Shown here: positions 3,709-58,777 of the stretch, piece after piece | Layout: each line of letters opens with the position of its first letter | Position numbering within the stretch: the stretch's first letter is position 1 | Virus record (IMG/VR): IMGVR_UViG_3300050119_000072 | Span: 1-64,000 of that record | Strand: one strand, 5' to 3' | Origin: a virus | Length of the DNA stretch: 64,000 nt | The notes under the pieces: generated by a model | Told to the model about the DNA's origin: nothing | The model's input: only the letters and a program-made list of their open reading frames with translations | Databases searched by the model: none | Program-made: the position numbers and the translations under genes

Positions 3709-3941
3709 TAGACGCGCTCCAATCGCAGGGGCAGGATCGCATGCGCCTCGTCGGCCGGGGTGGTAACCACGCCTTCGCTCACCTGTTCGGTCCCGCGATG
3801 GATGGCGCGGCGCATCGCGTCGATGAAATCTTCGCTCTCCCGGCGCCGGCGCACTAGCCAGAAGCTTCCATCGGTATCCCCCTCGTCGTCAGGATCGAGA
3901 CCGTGCGGCGGATGACGGCACTTTTTCCCCTTGGTGCTCAT
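3708..3941 (-). CDS. Hypothetical protein
   Basis: GGAGG SD, overlaps neighbours. Confidence 0.55.
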   Translation of the reverse strand: MSTKGKKCRHPPHGLDPDDEGDTDGSFWLVRRRRESEDFIDAMRRAIHRGTEQVSEGVVTTPADEAHAILPLRLERV

Positions 3942-42657: not shown

Positions 42658-43062
42658 ATGGCGGAAGACCCGGTCCAGCGGCTTGCAAAACTGCGGATCA
42701 TCAAGGCCAGCGCCGACCTCGACGTCCAATTCTCGGTCAAGCGCGCCGATCGCCCCTCGATCGAGATATTGCGCTTGCTGCGCGATGCCGCGGCAACATC
42801 ACTCGCCGCAATGGTCTTCCTCAACCTCGACGACCCGGCAGACCTTATCAAATGCAAGGTCATGCAGAATGAGGTCAAGCGCTACGACGAGTGGGTCGGC
42901 TGGCTGCGCCAGATCGTAAATGAAGGGCGCGAACTCGACCGCCAAATGAGCGACGACGAGCGCAACGAAATGCTCGATATCCTCATGTCGACCGGCGAAG
43001 GCCAGGAAGAAGCGATCGCGCTCGGCCTGGTCGACCCCAATAAGCGCGGCGCCGAAGAATAA
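42658..43062 (+). CDS. Conserved head-module protein upstream of scaffold
   Basis: Helical 134 aa, QNEV.RY.....WL..IV..G. Confidence 0.7.
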   Translation: MAEDPVQRLAKLRIIKASADLDVQFSVKRADRPSIEILRLLRDAAATSLAAMVFLNLDDPADLIKCKVMQNEVKRYDEWVGWLRQIVNEGRELDRQMSDDERNEMLDILMSTGEGQEEAIALGLVDPNKRGAEE

Positions 43063-43091
43063 GGCCGCCGGCTATCAAGCACTGATTTCGC

Positions 43092-43118
43092 AAGAGGCGC
43101 CACCCGGCGCCTTTTTGC
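43092..43118 (+). terminator. Terminator-like hairpin
   Basis: aggcgcc-accc-ggcgcct then tttt. Confidence 0.6.
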
Positions 43119-43140
43119 ATTTGAGGGAGCCAAGACCCGT

Positions 43141-44466
43141 ATGCCTGCACCGGACAAGCAGACCCAAGAGAGAGAATCGGCGGACCGCGCCAAAGCGGGC
43201 GTAGTCCCCGGGGAGGGCGGCGAAGCCCTCAATGCCATCGACGACGGCGCGCCAGGCGCCGATCCCGCACCGGCAGCCCGGCAAGCGCCGGCAGCCGAAC
43301 CCGCACCGAAGCCTGCGCCCGTCCCGCGCAGTCGGCAGGACGACGCGCGCAACGCCATCACGGCGCGCTTCCGCACCGATCGCGGGCAGGAAGCCGCAGA
43401 CAACGCCGACGATGTGAGCGAATTCACCCGCAGCGGCATGCCTCCGGAATTCGCGGAGAACAACGCGGCTGTCGCCGAACCGCCGCCGCAAGAACCCGAG
43501 CCGGCCGCGCCAGAGCCCACTGCCGCTGAGCCCGTCGCACTGCCCAAGACCGTGAAGGTCAAGGTGCGCGGCCAGGAGCAGGAACTCCCGCTCGAAACCG
43601 TTATTGCCGAAGCGCAAAAGGCGCTCGCCGGCGAAAGCTATCTCAGCGAAGGCCGAAAAGCGCTCGAAGAGATCGAGCGCCGCCTTCGCGCGACCCCAGA
43701 TCCGGCTGTACGTGGCCAGACGCAGCAACACCCCGCTGCGACGAACGACGTGCAGCCTACTGCCCCGGCTCCCGCCGATGGCGTCGATCCTCAGCACCCC
43801 GAGGACCTGATCCAGAAGCTTATGGAGACGATGCAATTTGGCGACCCCGCCGAAGCCCGCAACCTGCTCGAAAACACCCTTTCGGGAATGGTCGCAGCCA
43901 AAGTGGCGCCCGCCGTCAACGCGGCACTGCAATCCGATCGCCTTAAAGACGAAGGCGCCAAGACCGCAGCCGTCCTCGCTGACTTTGAGACCAAGCACGC
44001 CGACATTGCAGCCGATCCACGCGCTCGCGCGGTGATCGAGCAAGATGTCATCGGCCAACAGGTCGATGATCTCCGCAAGCTCGGCGTCGACCCCGCCAAG
44101 ATCAGGCCAGACGGATTGTCCCCGACACCAGGGGACATTGCCGAGGCCCACAAATGGTATCGCTCGCAAGGGCACAAGCTGACCACTCCGGCAGACATGC
44201 TCGAGACCGGCTTGAAAAATTACCTCGATTGGCGCGGGCCGAAAACGAACACGCCACCGGCCAACCCGGCAACGCCGCCAACGCTCGACGTCACTGTCGA
44301 TCGCACGGTGCGCCGCCAGGCCATCCCACAACAGCCCGGACGAGCCGCAGTACCCCGTCAGGACCCTCAACGCAGCCAGCCCGCGCCAGCGCGGGACCGC
44401 TCGAGGATCGTCCAAGACGAGATCGCACGGCGCAACGCCCCACGGGGAAAAGTCGCCGTCAGCTAA
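43141..44466 (+). CDS. Capsid scaffolding protein
   Basis: Acidic/Pro-rich, VKVKVRGQEQE..L...I...QK motif, directly before capsid gene. Confidence 0.8.
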   Translation: MPAPDKQTQERESADRAKAGVVPGEGGEALNAIDDGAPGADPAPAARQAPAAEPAPKPAPVPRSRQDDARNAITARFRTDRGQEAADNADDVSEFTRSGMPPEFAENNAAVAEPPPQEPEPAAPEPTAAEPVALPKTVKVKVRGQEQELPLETVIAEAQKALAGESYLSEGRKALEEIERRLRATPDPAVRGQTQQHPAATNDVQPTAPAPADGVDPQHPEDLIQKLMETMQFGDPAEARNLLENTLSGMVAAKVAPAVNAALQSDRLKDEGAKTAAVLADFETKHADIAADPRARAVIEQDVIGQQVDDLRKLGVDPAKIRPDGLSPTPGDIAEAHKWYRSQGHKLTTPADMLETGLKNYLDWRGPKTNTPPANPATPPTLDVTVDRTVRRQAIPQQPGRAAVPRQDPQRSQPAPARDRSRIVQDEIARRNAPRGKVAVS

Positions 44467-44502
44467 AGCCGACGGGCTAAGTCACGAAAGGAAACTGCCA
44501 CC

Positions 44503-47500
44503 ATGGCAGGGCAACTCTGGGTTAATGCCCCCATCTGATCGCAAGATCAGAATGTGCACCGGATGAATTGCTGGGATAGCCTTAGAGCCTTGATCGCTAC
44601 AGCGTGGCCCGCAAGGGCGAGCGCGAACGCGAAAAAGATCAAGGATTGGCCAATCAGCAGCCAAGCGCCATAGGAATATGGCGAAGGTTCAACGACTAGG
44701 TAAAGTAATCCAGACCGGATGAAATGCCCAAGAGCCTCCGGGACTTCACTGCCAATAATTGAGGTATACGCGGCGCTTTCTGCGAAGAGAGATAGTAGCG
44801 TCGCGGTAAATCCAGTGCAGCACCTTCGCGCTGCCACCATATCCTGACAACCTCCAGCATTCTTTTGCTCTGGCCTTCGTAAGGCTTATGCCAGTGTGAG
44901 TGTGGATGGCGTTCGCAACACCATCAATAAAAGCGGACGTACCAAGAAAATAGAACGCCTTTTTCGGCAACGCGCGAATGTGCCCGTCGCCGTCTAAAGA
45001 ACCTCTCAGAAAATGTCGTTCTAAATGCCATGGAATGTTGGGATATCGAAGCGTCACCGACTTACCGGGAACGATGCCGTGTTTCGCTAGATCAGCTACG
45101 AGCTTCTTGCTGTCGAATGTAATCTGTTTTCGCGGGCCTGATCCTGGAAAACCACCAGGGGCCTTATCGAAAACACGAGCATCCGATTGCATCGCTCGCC
45201 GCAGATCATAAAGAATGTGTTTGTCTCGCACCTGTAGGGCAATACTGACTTGCTTTCCAGACCGAGAGACAGACCCATCGGCTGAAAGAAGGCCAAGGGC
45301 GTAAGCCTTTTGCTCGGTGTTAATTACCGCAAAAAAGTCGTGATCGAGGGCGTACCGATTGACCCTCGGCTTCGTTGGAATGCCGTAATGCCGTCTCCAA
45401 TCGCCAACTGATCGGCCAGTAACGCCGAACATCTTGCCGATTTGCTCATCGTGCTTGGTCTCGTAAAGCGCCATGAGCTTTGTTTTGGATACGCGCATTC
45501 GTGGTAACCTCCGGTACATACGTGTATCGTACCAGCAGAAGAAGTCAAGATATAGTCTGTGCTGCATGGAGACATGCAGGAGCGCTTCATAAACAGGAGC
45601 GCGCGAACATCAGCGATACCCGCCGAGGGTGGATATATGTACAGCGACGAGCTGTCCGATGTCCTCCGTCAGCAGGTTCAGCCCCTGACCAAGATGAGGC
45701 AACTTTGCGATGCCGAGGACGGCACCAAAAAGGGTCTCAATCGCGGTGATAAATACAACTGGGACGTCTATTCCAACGTCGGTACGCAAGGCCGGCGCTT
45801 GGACGAAAGCGCACCGATCCCGGAGACGGGCTTCACCATCATCCAACATCAGTTGACTGTCTACGAAGCCGGCAATTCGGTTCTCTTAAACGGAGCCGCC
45901 TTGTCTCTTGCTGCCTAGCTTCTTGATGTAGAGCCTCACTTTTGGACCGTATGTCTCGGTCTTTTTGTGGCACTCAAAACATAATGTGCGCGCGTTTGTT
46001 GGGTCTAGCGCCCGATCTAGCGCGACGCAGATTGGCTCGATGTGATCGACGTTAAGAACGATCCTTGAACCTCTGCCTTTATGATTGCGGTCCCCGCATT
46101 CTTGGCAAGTCCAACGGTCACGCTTCAATATCGATCTACGAAACTCCTTGTATGCGGCGGTATCGCGAACTCCGCCGTCACCACCGAGCCAGTTACCGTG
46201 GTCCGGACCAGATGCAATGCCGTTCGGGTATTGCGCCTTAGTCAGACCAGCATTCCAGGCCACTTGGCCTTTCTTCGATTGAAGCCACCGTTTGCGAAGC
46301 TTCGGATCATTCCGAAGTCTCTCGTTGACCTTGGACCAATCGTTGAACGGCTCATGCCCTGGTTGAAAGCCCATCCGTTCCAATGACGGGTGATCGGCCT
46401 TTGTCAGACCGTCGTTCCATGCCGGGATATTTCCGGTTTGGGTTTTACGGCAGTTTGGATGATGCCCGCGCTTGTAAATGGGGAATGTCGCTTTCCCATT
46501 TCGATCGCGATGGCGGTAGTTAAGACGCGCCTTAAAGCGCTCTTTGCAGCCGCATTGGCAGACCTTGGTTTGATAGACGGCTTTCGTTGGCATACGGTAC
46601 ATTATACAGGAAAGCAGAAACAGAAGGCAAGGAAAATCGCGTGAAACGGGGAAACTCTCTCTGAGACAATCCCGTAGGAAGCTACCGAGGGCCTTTGGTT
46701 CGGTAGAACCTCTAGAGACTAGGCTGTGAGTCCCAACAATAATCAGCCCACGAGCGCGCGACGCGAAAGCGAAAAGATAGTCCCATCAGCACGGCGACGT
46801 GTTGGAAGCCGCGGATAAAGAGCCGCAGCGAAGAAGAAATGTCCGTACACCGGCAAGCTAGTTGCGTTGGCGAAGCATCAAGTCGCCGCGATCATCGACA
46901 AGACGTTGAAGGACGACGCGCGCAAGTATTTTGACATCGAAGCGTATTTGCAGTTCAAGAACACTGCACTGCGCGCCGAACCGTCGAGCGGCACGTCCAC
47001 CACCGCGATCAACCTCGACACCACGGGCACTGCCTCGGTGACGAACAACGTCGCGTTGGGCACCGGTCACATCAAGGCGATCGTCGACACGATGAAAGAA
47101 CGCAACGTGCCGCCATTTACGGCGGACGATTACGTTGGCGTGTCGCACCCATCGACCTGGCGTAACCTCAAGAACTCGCTCGAGACCATTCACCAATACA
47201 CGGAGACTGGCCTCGCGCACATCTTCAACGGCGAGATTGGCCGTTACGAAAGCTGCCGCTTTGTCGAGCAGACCTTCATTCCGAAGGGCGGCGCGGCAAA
47301 TGCGACGAGCTACGATCCGTGGGGCGGCGTTGCGCAGCCCTGGACTAACGGGCTCAGCTCGTGGGCTTTCATCATGGGCGGCGACACGGTGACGGAAGCC
47401 GTATGCGTGCCCGAAGAAATCCGCGCGAAAATCCCTGGTGACTTCGGCCGCTCACGCGGCATCGCCTGGTATTACCTCGGCGGCTTTGGTCTGGTCCACA

Positions 47501-47547
47501 CCGATGCGCTTAATGCGCGCGTCGTGATGTGGGACAGCGCAGCTTGA
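44503..47547 (+). CDS. Major capsid protein (N4-gp56-like), 3 exons: 44503-44521, 45614-45881, 46842-47547; about 330 aa
   Basis: Joined exons total 993 nt and read MAGQLW/AIPAEGGYMYSDELSDVLR...EAGNSV/PYTGKL...GEIGRYE..RFVEQT...EEIRAKIPGDFGRSRGIAWYYLGGFG; AAGGA SD; first junction uncertain by a few nt. Confidence 0.88.
44522..45613 (+). ncRNA. Group I intron 1 in capsid gene
   Basis: P GAATTGCTGGGA, Q AATCAGCAGCC, R GGTTCAACGACTA, S AAGATATAGTCT; P2 ctgatc-GCAA-gatcag; P9 ctgcatg-GAGA-catgcag. Confidence 0.9.
44746..45498 (-). CDS. Intron-encoded two-motif LAGLIDADG homing endonuclease (antisense to intron)
   Basis: YALGLLSADGSV and FLRGSLDGDGHI; N-terminal HTH-like; GGAGGT SD before ATG at 45498. 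Confidence 0.9.
   Translation of the reverse strand: MRVSKTKLMALYETKHDEQIGKMFGVTGRSVGDWRRHYGIPTKPRVNRYALDHDFFAVINTEQKAYALGLLSADGSVSRSGKQVSIALQVRDKHILYDLRRAMQSDARVFDKAPGGFPGSGPRKQITFDSKKLVADLAKHGIVPGKSVTLRYPNIPWHLERHFLRGSLDGDGHIRALPKKAFYFLGTSAFIDGVANAIHTHTGISLTKARAKECWRLSGYGGSAKVLHWIYRDATISLRRKRRVYLNYWQ
45886..46593 (-). CDS. Intron-encoded HNH homing endonuclease with NUMOD-like repeats (antisense)
   Basis: CQCGC, two (P/V)AWN.GLTK repeats, RDRWTCQECG, LNVDHI, NARTLCFECHKKT. Confidence 0.9.
   Translation of the reverse strand: MPTKAVYQTKVCQCGCKERFKARLNYRHRDRNGKATFPIYKRGHHPNCRKTQTGNIPAWNDGLTKADHPSLERMGFQPGHEPFNDWSKVNERLRNDPKLRKRWLQSKKGQVAWNAGLTKAQYPNGIASGPDHGNWLGGDGGVRDTAAYKEFRRSILKRDRWTCQECGDRNHKGRGSRIVLNVDHIEPICVALDRALDPTNARTLCFECHKKTETYGPKVRLYIKKLGSKRQGGSV
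46601..46630 (-). promoter_or_regulatory. Sigma70-like promoter for intron-2 HNH (leaderless)
   Basis: Minus strand TTGCCT-N18-TATAAT-N7-ATG. Confidence 0.7.
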
Positions 47548-47562
47548 GGAGGGTCAGCACAC

Positions 47563-48315
47563 ATGGCATACGAACAGGCTGACATTCGCGAGTATAGCTG
47601 GGGTCTAGATCAGACCTTCGGCGCCACCACCGTCACGCATCAGATCGTCGGGCCCAAGGGCAAGGTCGGTTTTGTGCGCGATATCTCGGTCGATTGCGCC
47701 ACGTCGTTCTCTGGAACGGTTATTCCGGAAATCGACATTGGCCTTTCCTCTGGCGATTACACCTTTGGGCGCTATCGTCTTGGAACGACCGCGTCCTCCG
47801 GTTACGGCGTTGGCCCGCACAGCGCGAGCCAGGAGGCCATCACCGGCAACCCGCCGCGCACTCTTGCGGATTACACGGGCCACGTCGTTCTCGACGGCGG
47901 CCCGCTCACGTCGCAAGGCATCGCCGGCGGCTCGTACAGCACGCAAGTGCCGGCGGGCCGTATTCCGGCATCGGGCTGGACGATCACGAACGTCGTCAAT
48001 GGCACTAGCAACGTCTGTCGCGTTTACGCGAACGGATTGTCGGCGGCGCCTGGTGGCATTCAGGTCGGACAGACCGTGACGGTGCAGGGCGTCAGTGGCG
48101 CTACCGGCGTCAACGGCATCGCCAAAGTGTCGGCGGTCGACACCACGAACTACCAGTGGTTCGAACTCGGCGGCACGACCTTCGGCGGCACTTACACCAA
48201 CGGAGGTATCGCCTTCCTGAGCGTGTTCGTGACCTTGCTGCAGGGCACGGGTTCTGGCGCTGGCGGCGGTTACGTCCGCGTCAAGATCCAGTGGATCGGT
48301 CCGGATACGCCGTAA
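47563..48315 (+). CDS. Capsid decoration/minor head protein
   Basis: Follows MCP, AGGAG SD; GPKGKVG.VRDI; inserted beta domain VGQTVTVQGVSG.T.VNG. Confidence 0.7.
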   Translation: MAYEQADIREYSWGLDQTFGATTVTHQIVGPKGKVGFVRDISVDCATSFSGTVIPEIDIGLSSGDYTFGRYRLGTTASSGYGVGPHSASQEAITGNPPRTLADYTGHVVLDGGPLTSQGIAGGSYSTQVPAGRIPASGWTITNVVNGTSNVCRVYANGLSAAPGGIQVGQTVTVQGVSGATGVNGIAKVSAVDTTNYQWFELGGTTFGGTYTNGGIAFLSVFVTLLQGTGSGAGGGYVRVKIQWIGPDTP

Positions 48316-48337
48316 TAGGCGGATTGCGAACACCAAA

Positions 48338-48367
48338 GAACGGGGGGCCATCCGGCTCCCCGTTTTC
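48338..48367 (+). terminator. Terminator after capsid genes
   Basis: aacggggggcc-atcc-ggctccccgtt then tt. Confidence 0.7.
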
Positions 48368-48386
48368 ACCAAGAAGGAGCACGCGC

Positions 48387-48623
48387 ATGCGTGGCATCGG
48401 ACTTTTCTTCGGCGGCATGAACGGCAAACGAAACGACCCGGTCAAAGTTGTTGACCCTCATCCGGTCCATGACTACGGCGATGACGTCGAGAAAGGAAAT
48501 GCTGGACTTGACGGCTATACTTGCCTCAGTCGGGCAAATCCAAATGCGCAGGGATCACCACCGCCCGTCGCTGGCGTAATTGGTCCGGTCTACAACGGGC
48601 CAGCAAATGATTTTGAGCAATGA
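48387..48623 (+). CDS. Small hypothetical protein
   Basis: AAGGAG SD. Confidence 0.65.
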   Translation: MRGIGLFFGGMNGKRNDPVKVVDPHPVHDYGDDVEKGNAGLDGYTCLSRANPNAQGSPPPVAGVIGPVYNGPANDFEQ

Positions 48624-48629
48624 CGGGAC

Positions 48630-49343
48630 CTACAGTAAGCGTCCGTTCCTTTGCGCAAAGACAAGCGGGTCTGTCGCGTGCTTTTCCCGATTGCATTTAA
48701 TACAAAGTAACTGAATGTTCTCAATGTAATTTGAGCCGCCTTTTGCTAATGGAACATAATGGTCGACTTCGTACTTTCCATTTAGCCTGCGGAAACAGAA
48801 CGCGCATTTGCCGGACTGTTTATCATATAGGGCGTTGACTTGTTTCTGCGTGTGGCGACCTGCTGCCCCTCTTTCTTTGGCGCGACGGTTGCGGCGTTTT
48901 TGTTTACGCACGTCAGGATGACGTTTCTCCCACGCGCGTTTGGTGGCGTTTATCCGTATTTTGTGGCGCTCTCGGATGCGCCTGTCTTGTTTTCTTACTT
49001 TCGCAGGGTGCGTTTGCCTTTCTTTCTTATGTTTCTCTCTAATCGTTTCCGCGTTCCGCGAATAATAATCTTCGCCACAAGCTCGCAGCCCTTTTTGATA
49101 CGCCTTAGCGCGCGGTAGTTCTACGTCTCTATTCCTCTCGTAGTGCCTGCGCCTCGCAGCCTTTTTCTTCGACGGATTTGCTGCGCTCCATATACGATAG
49201 GCTTCTGCGCAACACTCAACACATTGATTTTGGTGAGTGTAGCGCTCGCATACATGACCGTTCTTGCACGAGACGCCAGAGTAATAACGCTTTAGCCCAG
49301 CGGCTTTGGCGTCGCGTCTACGCAGAATCATGGTGGTGCCCAT
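48630..49343 (-). CDS. Free-standing HNH endonuclease
   Basis: AK..GLKRYYSG..CKNGH..ERY...CVEC; QSGKCAFC...VDHYVPLAKGGSN...NIQLLC..CN..K. Confidence 0.92.
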   Translation of the reverse strand: MGTTMILRRRDAKAAGLKRYYSGVSCKNGHVCERYTHQNQCVECCAEAYRIWSAANPSKKKAARRRHYERNRDVELPRAKAYQKGLRACGEDYYSRNAETIREKHKKERQTHPAKVRKQDRRIRERHKIRINATKRAWEKRHPDVRKQKRRNRRAKERGAAGRHTQKQVNALYDKQSGKCAFCFRRLNGKYEVDHYVPLAKGGSNYIENIQLLCIKCNREKHATDPLVFAQRNGRLL

Positions 49344-49393
49344 GACAAAAACTAGCACCGCCCCACGATAGCAATCAACCGAAAGGAAACACA

Positions 49394-49708
49394 ATGGCTA
49401 AAGATATGTCGAAGGGTCCCTACAAAAAGGATCACCCAGAAAATTTTATTGAAGGAGCCTTGACCGGTGGTCATGGTCCCTCGGAAGGCATCCACGAAAC
49501 GCACGTCGATCGCCCGCACCAGACCATCAATACCGCGGTCGCAATGGACAACGTCAAGCTCGCAATGCCGATCAAGACCTCGATCCTCGACGATGAGTTC
49601 CCCGGCGGCGTGGACAACCTCAAGCATTCACTCAGCGGCGCGTCCGCGGTGAACGAGGAAGTCGGCGCGGCTGGACCGGTACGCCACATTATCGTACCTG
49701 GGCATTGA
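49394..49708 (+). CDS. Hypothetical head-associated protein
   Basis: AAGGA SD; NLKHSLSGASA motif. Confidence 0.7.
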   Translation: MAKDMSKGPYKKDHPENFIEGALTGGHGPSEGIHETHVDRPHQTINTAVAMDNVKLAMPIKTSILDDEFPGGVDNLKHSLSGASAVNEEVGAAGPVRHIIVPGH

Positions 49709-49709
49709 C

Positions 49710-50294
49710 CTACAAGTTGCTCCCGCCTGTCTCATCGATGGGCGGGGGCTTCTTGTGGTATCGTCGGTCTGCGCGTTTGGGTCGGCGGTTTAATGCCTGC
49801 TCGCTCCAAGTTGCCCATCGACAATTTGACGGCATGTAATTGCCGTCCCGGTCTGGGTATCTGTCGAGGGTTAGGTGTTCTGCGAAGCCGTTGGCTAATG
49901 CCCAATCACGGAAGCAGTGGACCGAATGCCATTCGGCGCACACGCGAATCCCGCGGCCGCCGTAGTATTCAAATTTCTCGGTCTTTGGATTCTCGCATCT
50001 ATTCAGCATTGCCCTCCAAGCCCTGTATATCTTCGTGCCGTCCAATCCATGCTTCCGGTTAGCGCGGCCAGTCGCGGCAATAGCTTCGCGCTTTTGACAC
50101 CCGCAACTCTTGGTATTGCCGCTTCTGACGCTTTCGAGGCGAGCGACCACCATTGTTCCGCAGTCGCATCGAAACCGCCAAAGTATCTTTCGACGTGTCC
50201 CCGCTTCGCGGCCCGCAGATTTAACCGCGGTCAATCTATTGAACCGCTGTCCAGGAGAGGTTTTTCGGCTATAGGGTGCGGCAGCCTTTGTCAT
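49710..50294 (-). CDS. Free-standing HNH-type homing endonuclease
   Basis: GQRFNRLT...W...CDCG...SGNTKSCGC, W.AM..RC.N....YGGRGIRVC..W, LTLDR...DGNY.PSNCRWAT..EQ..NRR. Confidence 0.9.
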   Translation of the reverse strand: MTKAAAPYSRKTSPGQRFNRLTAVKSAGREAGTRRKILWRFRCDCGTMVVARLESVRSGNTKSCGCQKREAIAATGRANRKHGLDGTKIYRAWRAMLNRCENPKTEKFEYYGGRGIRVCAEWHSVHCFRDWALANGFAEHLTLDRYPDRDGNYMPSNCRWATWSEQALNRRPKRADRRYHKKPPPIDETGGSNL

Positions 50295-50318
50295 GGGTCC
50301 ATCCATCGACTGAGGTTA

Positions 50319-58111: not shown

Positions 58112-58777
58112 CTATATCAGGCGTCCGGTCTCGCGTGCATAGTCGATGGGGTCCTTGCGGCCCTTCGCCATGTTGCATGCGGGACAAAGGACTTGAATGT
58201 TCTTTGGCCAATTTGAGCCGCCCTTAGATAAGGGAATGATGTGGTCGACGTGATATTGTCTGCCCAGTTTCTTTGGGCAATAAGCGCACTGGCCGGATTG
58301 GCGCTTTATGATGCTTGCCACGTCTGAGGCGGTATGAACGCCTTCGGCATGCTTCTCTCGTGCGCGGCGCGCGCGTGAAGCGTTCGCGCGTTGCGTCGGA
58401 TATCTCTTCGCGTATTCGCGCCATAACGCGCGGCGAACGGATGGCGGCCTGTTCTTTGACTTTGCCACCAACGCAGCCCATTTTTCTGGGTTGCGGCGTT
58501 TCCAATCTCTTAGTTTCTCACGGCGGACTGCCTTGTCTTTTTTGTTAACGTGCTTTCTCCAATAAGCTCTGCACCGCTCTCTATTGTTTTCCTGCCATAT
58601 TTTTCCATAGTTTTTGTCTCTTGGTTTTTTGCATTTGATACAGGCGACACATCTTCCTTCGTAAACGTATCGCTCAGAAACGTGTCCATTCGGACATGGC
58701 TCGCCCGTAAAATATCGCTTTGCGCCGATAGCGCGAGCTTCGCTCTTAGACAGAATCGGGTGCTGCGGATCGGCCAT
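58112..58777 (-). CDS. Free-standing HNH endonuclease (paralogue of 48630 gene)
   Basis: AR.IG.KRYFTG.PCPNGH.SERY...CVAC; QSGQCAYC...HVDHIIPLSKGGSN...NIQVLC..CN..K. Confidence 0.92.
   Translation of the reverse strand: MADPQHPILSKSEARAIGAKRYFTGEPCPNGHVSERYVYEGRCVACIKCKKPRDKNYGKIWQENNRERCRAYWRKHVNKKDKAVRREKLRDWKRRNPEKWAALVAKSKNRPPSVRRALWREYAKRYPTQRANASRARRAREKHAEGVHTASDVASIIKRQSGQCAYCPKKLGRQYHVDHIIPLSKGGSNWPKNIQVLCPACNMAKGRKDPIDYARETGRLI

Follow-up and report, generated by a model that had tools for sequence, protein, structure and literature searches.

The first 64,000 nucleotides (nt) of the virus record IMGVR_UViG_3300050119_000072 (IMG/VR), a stretch that we call the window, contain a major capsid gene (44503-47547, plus strand) that is interrupted by two group I introns, each of which carries an intact homing endonuclease gene on the minus strand, a LAGLIDADG gene in intron 1 and an HNH gene in intron 2. 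A preliminary description made from the sequence alone had proposed that both endonuclease genes are antisense to their introns, and this is confirmed by intron cores found on the plus strand with Rfam and with our own covariance model R1, and by intact open reading frames (ORFs) on the minus strand. The best reading of this layout, which we consider probable, is that the two genes are self-promoted antisense cassettes whose orientation uncouples the nucleases from the late expression of the capsid gene.

The genome of which the window forms the first 64 kb is that of an uncultured virus, 86,655 bp long, rated complete and with direct terminal repeats; the sequencing runs containing it are labelled as peat metagenomes. 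The genome has a single capsid gene, whose closest named relatives are those of Escherichia phage PTXU04 and of Vibrio phages such as D279 (~320 amino acids (aa), 46-47% identity to exon 3). Searching with the intron-less capsid proteins of PTXU04 and D279 (tblastn) recovers three plus-strand pieces in the window: MAGQLW at 44503, GGYMYSD...GNSV to 45882, and PYTGKL... from 46843. Removal of the introns restores, at both sites, an uninterrupted frame as in intron-less alleles, and the capsid mRNA would be spliced at both predicted junctions. Cultured phages yielded no megablast match to 43000-48400. One metagenome contig (X3) links 45794 to 46889 via 134 other letters, which fits an intron-less relative and is too weak to use. 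Of the other DNA contigs, those of X2 represent the same phage in fragments, and the joint in X4 has a side of just 21 nt.

The Rfam group I model RF00028 matches 44513-45579 (47.2 bits, E = 3e-10) and 46575-46804 (30.4 bits, E = 3.2e-5). At the gathering threshold (50 bits) it has no match in the whole window, as both introns score below it; long ORF insertions depress the score. Related introns at two other viral loci (L009 and L061 in our numbering) score 53-70 bits, above the cut-off. Fourteen contiguous P3-P3' cores, taken from the window and from related viral loci, were aligned and gave an RNAalifold consensus of 32 predicted pairs, 25 of them with compensatory double changes, and R1, the covariance model built from this alignment, finds exactly two matches in the 64 kb, both on the plus strand (44550-44756, 200.7 bits, and 46628-46776, 97.2 bits). 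Compensatory changes are also seen in P6 and P9 of intron 2 when the window is compared with locus L052. Scanning for R and S motifs produced too much noise for orientation counts, for which R1 was used instead. The GC content of the inserts is low, which, with their sporadic presence among relatives, fits mobile introns. The components of the split gene are as follows, with the supporting evidence in brackets:

44503..44521, plus strand: capsid exon 1, MAGQLW and the first base of an Ala codon; its end is uncertain by 1-2 nt, with 44523 as the alternative
44522..45613, plus strand: group I intron 1 (~1092 nt), with its cassette in the P8 loop (Rfam, R1, covariation, homologous cores in L017, L009 and L061)
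44550..44756, plus strand: catalytic core of intron 1, from P3 to P3'/P8 5' strand (R1)
44746..45498, minus strand: helix-turn-helix (HTH)-LAGLIDADG homing endonuclease gene, 250 aa and stop (Pfam, PHROG, starts of homologues)
45547..45557, plus strand: J8/7-P7 element AAGATATAGTC of intron 1, the 'S' of the preliminary description (Rfam alignment)
45614..45881, plus strand: capsid exon 2 (tblastn and comparison with relatives)
45878..45898, plus strand: P1 of intron 2, 7 pairs including a U45881-G45895 wobble, its 3' strand being the internal guide
45882..46841, plus strand: group I intron 2 (960 nt), with its cassette between P1 and P3 (Rfam, R1, comparison with L052, junction in intron-less relatives)
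45886..46602, minus strand: HNH homing endonuclease gene, starting at ATG 46602 (238 aa) or ATG 46593 (235 aa) (Pfam, PHROG, homologues at the same site)
46628..46841, plus strand: catalytic core P3-P9 and 3' tail of intron 2 (Rfam, R1, covariation, compensatory changes relative to L052)
46842..47547, plus strand: capsid exon 3 (tblastn and comparison with relatives)

The boundaries of intron 2 are canonical, exon 2 ending in ...TCGGT (U45881 at -1) and the intron in ...AAATG (G46841), and the resulting junction (GT/T CCG TAC, encoding GNSV-PYT) is the same as in 73 intron-less relatives. Its ORF matches the Pfam HNH model (E = 1.3e-6) and 18 PHROG families, 16 of which are annotated as HNH endonuclease; C166, C169, H187, N203, C208, C211 and H212 of the protein are invariant in comparison with the L052 homologue (39% identity). 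The HNH stop (TTA on the plus strand, 45886-45888) lies inside the P1 loop and the last four codons, GGSV (45889-45900), overlie the guide strand GGAGCCG, as the preliminary description had seen. It was also right that an HNH mRNA containing this stop is complementary to the guide and P1 and enters exon 2, which it does after 5 more bases. Pairing is possible between 45899-45915, which follows P1, and 46614-46632, immediately ahead of P3, so that the HNH ORF probably sits in a loop closed by this putative P2; compared with shuffled sequences the duplex has a z-score of -1.8 in the window (weak), -2.8 in L179 and -3.4 in L181, the other four loci being no better. The guide-overlapping tail of the gene is in different frames in the window (GGC GGC TCC GTT TAA, ..GGSV) and in L052 (CGG CTC CCT TAA, ..KRLP), and the overlap therefore has the look of a reading frame that continues until it meets a stop in the P1 loop.

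In intron 1 the longest LAGLIDADG ORF spans 44746-45567 on the minus strand, and its start was set at ATG 45498 because the homologues in L017 (72% identity) and L009 (54%) begin at MR.TK. The protein matches Pfam LAGLIDADG_3 (E = 5.6e-7) and phrog_4645, "endonuclease" (E = 1.4e-46), and the G, D and G of its two motifs (..LGLLSADG.. and ..RGSLDGDG..) are invariant in the three aligned sequences. Relative to L017, the ratio of nonsynonymous to synonymous divergence (dN 0.209, dS ~1.95, dN/dS ~0.11) indicates that the gene is under purifying selection. The insert occupies the P8 loop, between the J6/7-P7 element GTTCAACGACTA (44687-44698) and AAGATATAGTC (45547-45557) in the Rfam alignment; this and the sequence itself bear out the earlier placement of the ORF between elements R and S, with GGAGGT and TGGTACGAT upstream of it. 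As read from the sequence, P8 pairs GACUUC-A-CUGC (44742-44752) with GCAG-AA-GAAGUC (45535-45546), and the LAGLIDADG stop (44746-44748) and last two codons thus sit in the P8 5' strand, where the end of the L017 ORF is likewise found. No splice site falls within the cassette. For the 5' splice site of this intron, structure would predict a cut after U44522, which is paired to G44527. Yet just one join, TGGG^...G^C(G/A), keeps the frame, leaves G as the final intron base and recreates the intron-less sequence in the window as well as in L017, and it has G at -1; joining at U44523/G45615 is workable in the window only. The 5' splice site of intron 1 hence seems to be non-canonical, with G instead of U at -1, while the last base of the intron is G, as expected of group I introns.

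Three candidate expression signals accompany these genes:

45512-45507, minus strand: Shine-Dalgarno sequence GGAGGT, 8 nt before the LAGLIDADG ATG 45498
45534-45526, minus strand: extended -10-like motif TGGTACGAT, upstream of the LAGLIDADG ATG (read from sequence)
46601..46630, minus strand: sigma-70-like promoter TTGCCT-18-TATAAT (10/12 match), within the 3' strand of the putative P2

The last of these is the best promoter-like site in 44300-49600. Its -10 hexamer ends 7 nt ahead of ATG 46593, which lacks a preceding Shine-Dalgarno sequence; this suggests a leaderless HNH mRNA. At the aligned position L052 has TTGCTT-17-TACTAA-6-ATG, both hexamers being kept despite the low identity of the ORFs. 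The two strands of the window (128 kb in all) contain 24 sites of the general pattern TTGNNN-N16-18-TANNNT, and three of them end 5-7 nt ahead of an HNH start codon (ATG 46593, 49343 and 58777), a placement whose chance probability is ~2e-9 at the global rate or ~5e-7 at the local rate, for a pattern defined after looking. A scan found no minus-strand terminator-like site between 45886 and 44515, so read-through from the HNH unit into the LAGLIDADG gene is possible. Farther along, the hairpin CTGCCACCATGGCAG at 44495-44509 overlaps the capsid start codon and is followed on the minus strand by a T-rich run, which makes it terminator-like; counterparts are present in L017 and in the intron-less loci L006 and L007, and it is therefore not specific to antisense cassettes. 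The Sigma70_r2 profile has no match in the genome (its control was positive); the phage RNA polymerase profile PF00940 has none either, but its control was also silent and the result is uninformative.

The opposed orientation extends beyond the introns, as all five nuclease genes in the plus-strand late structural region lie on the minus strand. Besides the intron-borne pair, these are:

48630..49394, minus strand: free-standing HNH endonuclease gene, likely start ATG 49343 (Pfam, PHROG)
49710..50306, minus strand: free-standing HNH-type endonuclease gene (phrog_374, 1e-60; no Pfam match)
58112..58777, minus strand: free-standing HNH endonuclease gene with a leaderless-type promoter (Pfam, PHROG)

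All three lie between plus-strand structural genes, and two of them have a TTGNNN-N16-18-TANNNT site ending 5 nt before the ATG. In the whole 86.7-kb genome there are three Pfam HNH matches, all on the minus strand, and no match to the GIY-YIG profile. The minus strand further carries, at 1.8-7.2 kb, the methyltransferase gene and the RecE-like and Erf-like ones. GC content at third codon positions is 0.52-0.61 in the five nuclease genes (0.53-0.58 in the intron-borne pair) versus 0.64-0.84 in seven sampled resident genes.

To place the two introns among their relatives, 80 related capsid loci were examined, of which 78 could be assessed at site 2 (the position of intron 2) and 77 at site 1. 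Site 2 is uninterrupted, with the exact junction, in 73/78 and interrupted in five; site 1 is contiguous in 76/77 and interrupted only in L017. Altogether, 11 insertions at four sites were found in six of the 80 loci, and this capsid family is an intron hot spot. Three of the 11 carry an antisense endonuclease gene (a LAGLIDADG gene at site 1 of L017 and at site 2 of L009, an HNH gene at site 2 of L052) and four have no ORF, among them the site 2 intron of L017. An R1 core was found in 8/11 insertions, that of the L069 insertion, which carries an HNH_3 gene, being verified; the three misses are insertions with sense LAGLIDADG genes (L051:5311-6000, L061:648-1315 and L009:3848-4611), in which neither Rfam nor R1 detected a group I core. 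These three are 660-760 nt long and nearly filled by their ORFs, which are out of frame with the capsid, and those of L051 and L061 share their first ~70 nt; an intein or in-frame read-through was ruled out for them by many stops in the capsid frame.

The introns of this family are also mosaic: the site 2 intron of L009 (4735-6000) has a 5' core like that of window intron 1 (44550-44750, 86% identity), and its 3' hairpin and the purine-rich tail resemble those of window intron 2 (46805-46841). A 565-nt insertion in exon 3 of L061 (L061:1576-2124) holds two complete tandem group I cores (Rfam 69.7 and 53.2 bits), and more capsid-gene cores occur in L052 (a second one, L052:6672-6831) and L097 (L097:1863-2064, 2535-2689 and 3728-3884).

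Homologues of the two endonucleases were then sought in viral contigs with alignments as queries, single-protein queries having given six HNH loci and one LAGLIDADG locus. The HNH alignment retrieved seven loci (six distinct sequences), with capsid identities of 44-78% and HNH identities of 33-56%. In all seven the opposite strand carries an intron core, immediately upstream of the HNH start and between capsid exons 2 and 3, and in all six distinct loci the distance of the HNH stop from the predicted exon end is between -2 and 23 nt. In a further six HNH loci, more distantly related, R1 found no group I core (0/6). From the LAGLIDADG alignment search, which yielded 514 relatives, 80 loci were kept; by R1, three of them have antisense-adjacent cores, all at identities of at least 49% and all in the capsid gene, three have non-adjacent cores and 57 have none. 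The three close LAGLIDADG relatives occupy three different capsid sites (in L017, L009 and L097), each in antisense orientation. Whether antisense orientation is common in phage introns, a question that the preliminary description had raised, thus has a divided answer: it is a minority overall, but it is fixed and long-lived in two endonuclease lineages of this phage group.

Antisense endonuclease genes are uncommon, but a precedent is known. In mycobacteriophage LittleE (JF937101.1), the intron of capsid gene 13 carries an endonuclease gene (gene 14) on the opposite strand, as in the window, and according to Pope et al. 2013 (PMC3706429) it is spliced, as determined by reverse transcription PCR and N-terminal sequencing. 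The claim of the preliminary description that phage intron endonucleases are encoded on the sense strand is accordingly not general. The LittleE intron, the only one in that gene compared with two in the window, has U before its 5' splice site and G at its end and scores 30.7 bits with Rfam on the plus strand, just upstream of gene 14. The product of gene 14, unique to LittleE within its phage collection, is absent among the matches listed for our LAGLIDADG tblastn search and is unrelated in sequence. LittleE is not an HNH case, and the available part of the paper neither discusses the orientation nor describes an overlap of the gene with P1 or the guide such as is seen in the window. GenBank labels gene 14 (L087, 4065-4598) as HNH, but it matches Pfam LAGLIDADG_3 and no HNH model, and the text of the paper agrees.

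Among nuclear introns, sense and antisense endonuclease genes both occur, and I-DirII of the Didymium iridis intron Dir.S956-2 (Johansen et al. 2006) is antisense to its group I ribozyme with its own promoter (PMC3073962, PMC3679873). I-DirII differs from the window genes in residing in a eukaryotic nucleolar rDNA intron, in being a His-Cys box enzyme and in having an RNA polymerase II promoter, a spliceosomal intron and a poly(A) tail; its setting, unlike that of the window, involves no coupled translation and no protein-coding host gene.

In phage SPO1, I-HmuI is encoded on the sense strand. The T4 td, nrdB and nrdD introns (I-TevI, II and III) resemble those of the window in being mobile group I introns with an endonuclease gene looped out from a peripheral helix, but their endonuclease genes, which have their own middle and late promoters (PMC2988022), are sense whereas ours are antisense. 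Fourteen of the 15 T4 homing endonuclease genes are co-oriented with their neighbours, the exception being the free-standing segD beside the capsid gene (PMC2988022), which the free-standing minus-strand HNH genes of the window resemble (segD lies beside gene 23). The LAGLIDADG family of the window includes I-812II from the recA intron of Staphylococcus phage 812/K (EF136585.1; 32% identity over 90% of the length), which, unlike the window gene, is on the same strand as the recombinase gene that it interrupts. In cyanophage S-PM2, Millard et al. 2010 described CfrI, a minus-strand RNA over an intron-containing gene and an endonuclease gene for which a regulatory role has been suggested (PMC2984593). 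CfrI is, in that account, a ~225-nt non-coding RNA antisense to psbA and to a sense free-standing endonuclease gene; the antisense RNA of the window, predicted from sequence complementarity, would by contrast be the nuclease mRNA itself.

Literature searches, made largely outside subscription journals, turned up no report of phage introns with an antisense HNH gene and none on what antisense orientation does in phage introns, and a review of bacterial group I introns (PMC3984707) makes no mention of antisense or opposite orientation or of own promoters. Three observations are new: the antisense HNH/site 2 intron unit that recurs in 7/7 related viral loci, the placement of all five endonuclease genes of one genome against the late operon, and the sigma-70-like promoters of three of these genes, positioned for leaderless mRNAs.

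If the genes are self-promoted antisense cassettes, each mobile intron would carry, on its opposite strand, an endonuclease gene that is transcribed as a unit of its own. The HNH mRNA would start at or just before its ATG, from the sigma-70-like promoter, and the LAGLIDADG gene, with its strong Shine-Dalgarno sequence, would be transcribed from its own promoter or by read-through from the HNH unit. The antisense orientation is not specific to introns, as all five nuclease genes are so placed in the plus-strand late operon, in the same direction as the recombination and methylase genes. It could uncouple the expression of the nucleases from that of the capsid gene, whose late transcription and translation are very high, and keep ribosomes off the folding ribozyme, while convergent late transcription might damp the nuclease promoters. 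The ORF ends overlapping P1 and P8 would result from tight packing of the cassettes into peripheral loops. Both proteins are predicted to cleave intron-less alleles, and splicing tolerates such a layout, since the LittleE intron is spliced with an antisense gene inside it.

Several results weigh against this reading. The promoters are motif matches, and the sigma-70 consensus may not be that of the host; by count, the promoter-like sites in 44300-49600 are not above shuffles (3 vs 2.1 +/- 1.5). The extended -10 motif TGGTACGAT is not conserved in L017, so a promoter belonging to the LAGLIDADG gene itself is not established, and the HNH relatives L178 and L180 have starts of the Shine-Dalgarno rather than the leaderless type. 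Antisense orientation is moreover not required, since sense-strand endonuclease genes occur in the same capsid family: they are found in 4/11 insertions (HNH_3 in L069, LAGLIDADG_3 in L051 and L061, a weak LAGLIDADG_1 in L009), and of the 80 LAGLIDADG loci 15 have sense-adjacent cores within 400 nt and 17 within 1 kb. The functional benefit of the orientation is, furthermore, something that we infer.

These sense genes are also what a neutral origin would lead one to expect. The orientation would then be an accident of the first invasion of a loop, kept by descent, with the need for a promoter as its only consequence, which we regard as possible though unlikely. Such an origin accommodates the occurrence of both orientations in relatives' capsid insertions (3 antisense, 4 sense) and the sense orientation of the LAGLIDADG family in the phage 812 recA intron and in 15-17 of the 80 viral loci, and the clustering of antisense cases in lineages is as descent predicts. 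It fits less well with a single genome in which 5/5 nuclease genes, from at least three families, are antisense (~0.03 for a fair coin), with T4, where all but one of 15 such genes are co-oriented with their neighbours (PMC2988022), or with the consistent promoter placement at three HNH genes.

The preliminary description had instead proposed a timing switch, in which antisense HNH or read-through RNA would pair with P1, the guide and exon 2, block splicing and thereby switch between homing and capsid synthesis. The complementarity is indeed unavoidable, with a stop that lies 5 nt into the intron and four final codons over the guide; no minus-strand terminator-like site precedes 44515, the HNH stop is near the 5' splice site in all six distinct related loci, and the S-PM2 antisense RNA links an intron-containing gene with an endonuclease gene (PMC2984593). 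The switch nevertheless found no support and we consider it improbable. The guide-overlapping tails of the window and L052, being in different frames, point to tight packing and not to regulation, and the LAGLIDADG cassette covers no splice site. As 73/78 relatives lack the site 2 intron and that of L017 lacks an ORF, capsid timing is independent of the HNH gene. LittleE splices well despite its antisense gene, and a weak leaderless nuclease mRNA would be unlikely to titrate the most abundant late mRNA.

It is similarly doubtful that the cassettes form one antisense operon of ~2.1 kb (the 46601-46630 promoter, the HNH gene, the antisense of exon 2, the LAGLIDADG gene and the 44509-44495 hairpin) acting as a two-way switch with the late operon. 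Were this so, antisense RNA would early on mask exon 2 together with the guide and 5' splice site of intron 2 and prevent capsid protein from being made, the nucleases meanwhile acting on co-infecting genomes, and later strong capsid transcription would overrun and silence the nuclease promoters.

That the capsid gene is not spliced at all, being broken or made in separate pieces by nuclease-gene insertions, might be suspected from the two sub-threshold Rfam scores and the apparent need for G before the 5' splice site of intron 1, but it is very improbable given cores that covary, homology that extends exactly as far as the junctions, a lack of start or stop signals by which the pieces could be made separately, a complete terminally repeated genome with no second capsid gene, and related L009 and L061 introns above the Rfam cut-off.

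The expression of intron endonuclease genes in phages and bacteria must not let ribosomes or strong transcription disturb ribozyme folding and host-gene expression, a conflict that the textbook cases of T4 meet on the sense strand. Read as self-promoted antisense cassettes, the genes of the window and its relatives would represent a second, heritable solution in uncultured phages, with opposite-strand transcription units so closely packed that their coding ends overlap P1, the guide and P8. The locus offers a defined system for asking whether antisense nuclease transcription and late transcription interfere with each other, and whether leaderless promoters within ribozyme helices function. For annotation it carries a warning, in that reverse-strand nuclease genes within split structural genes mark introns, not gene boundaries.

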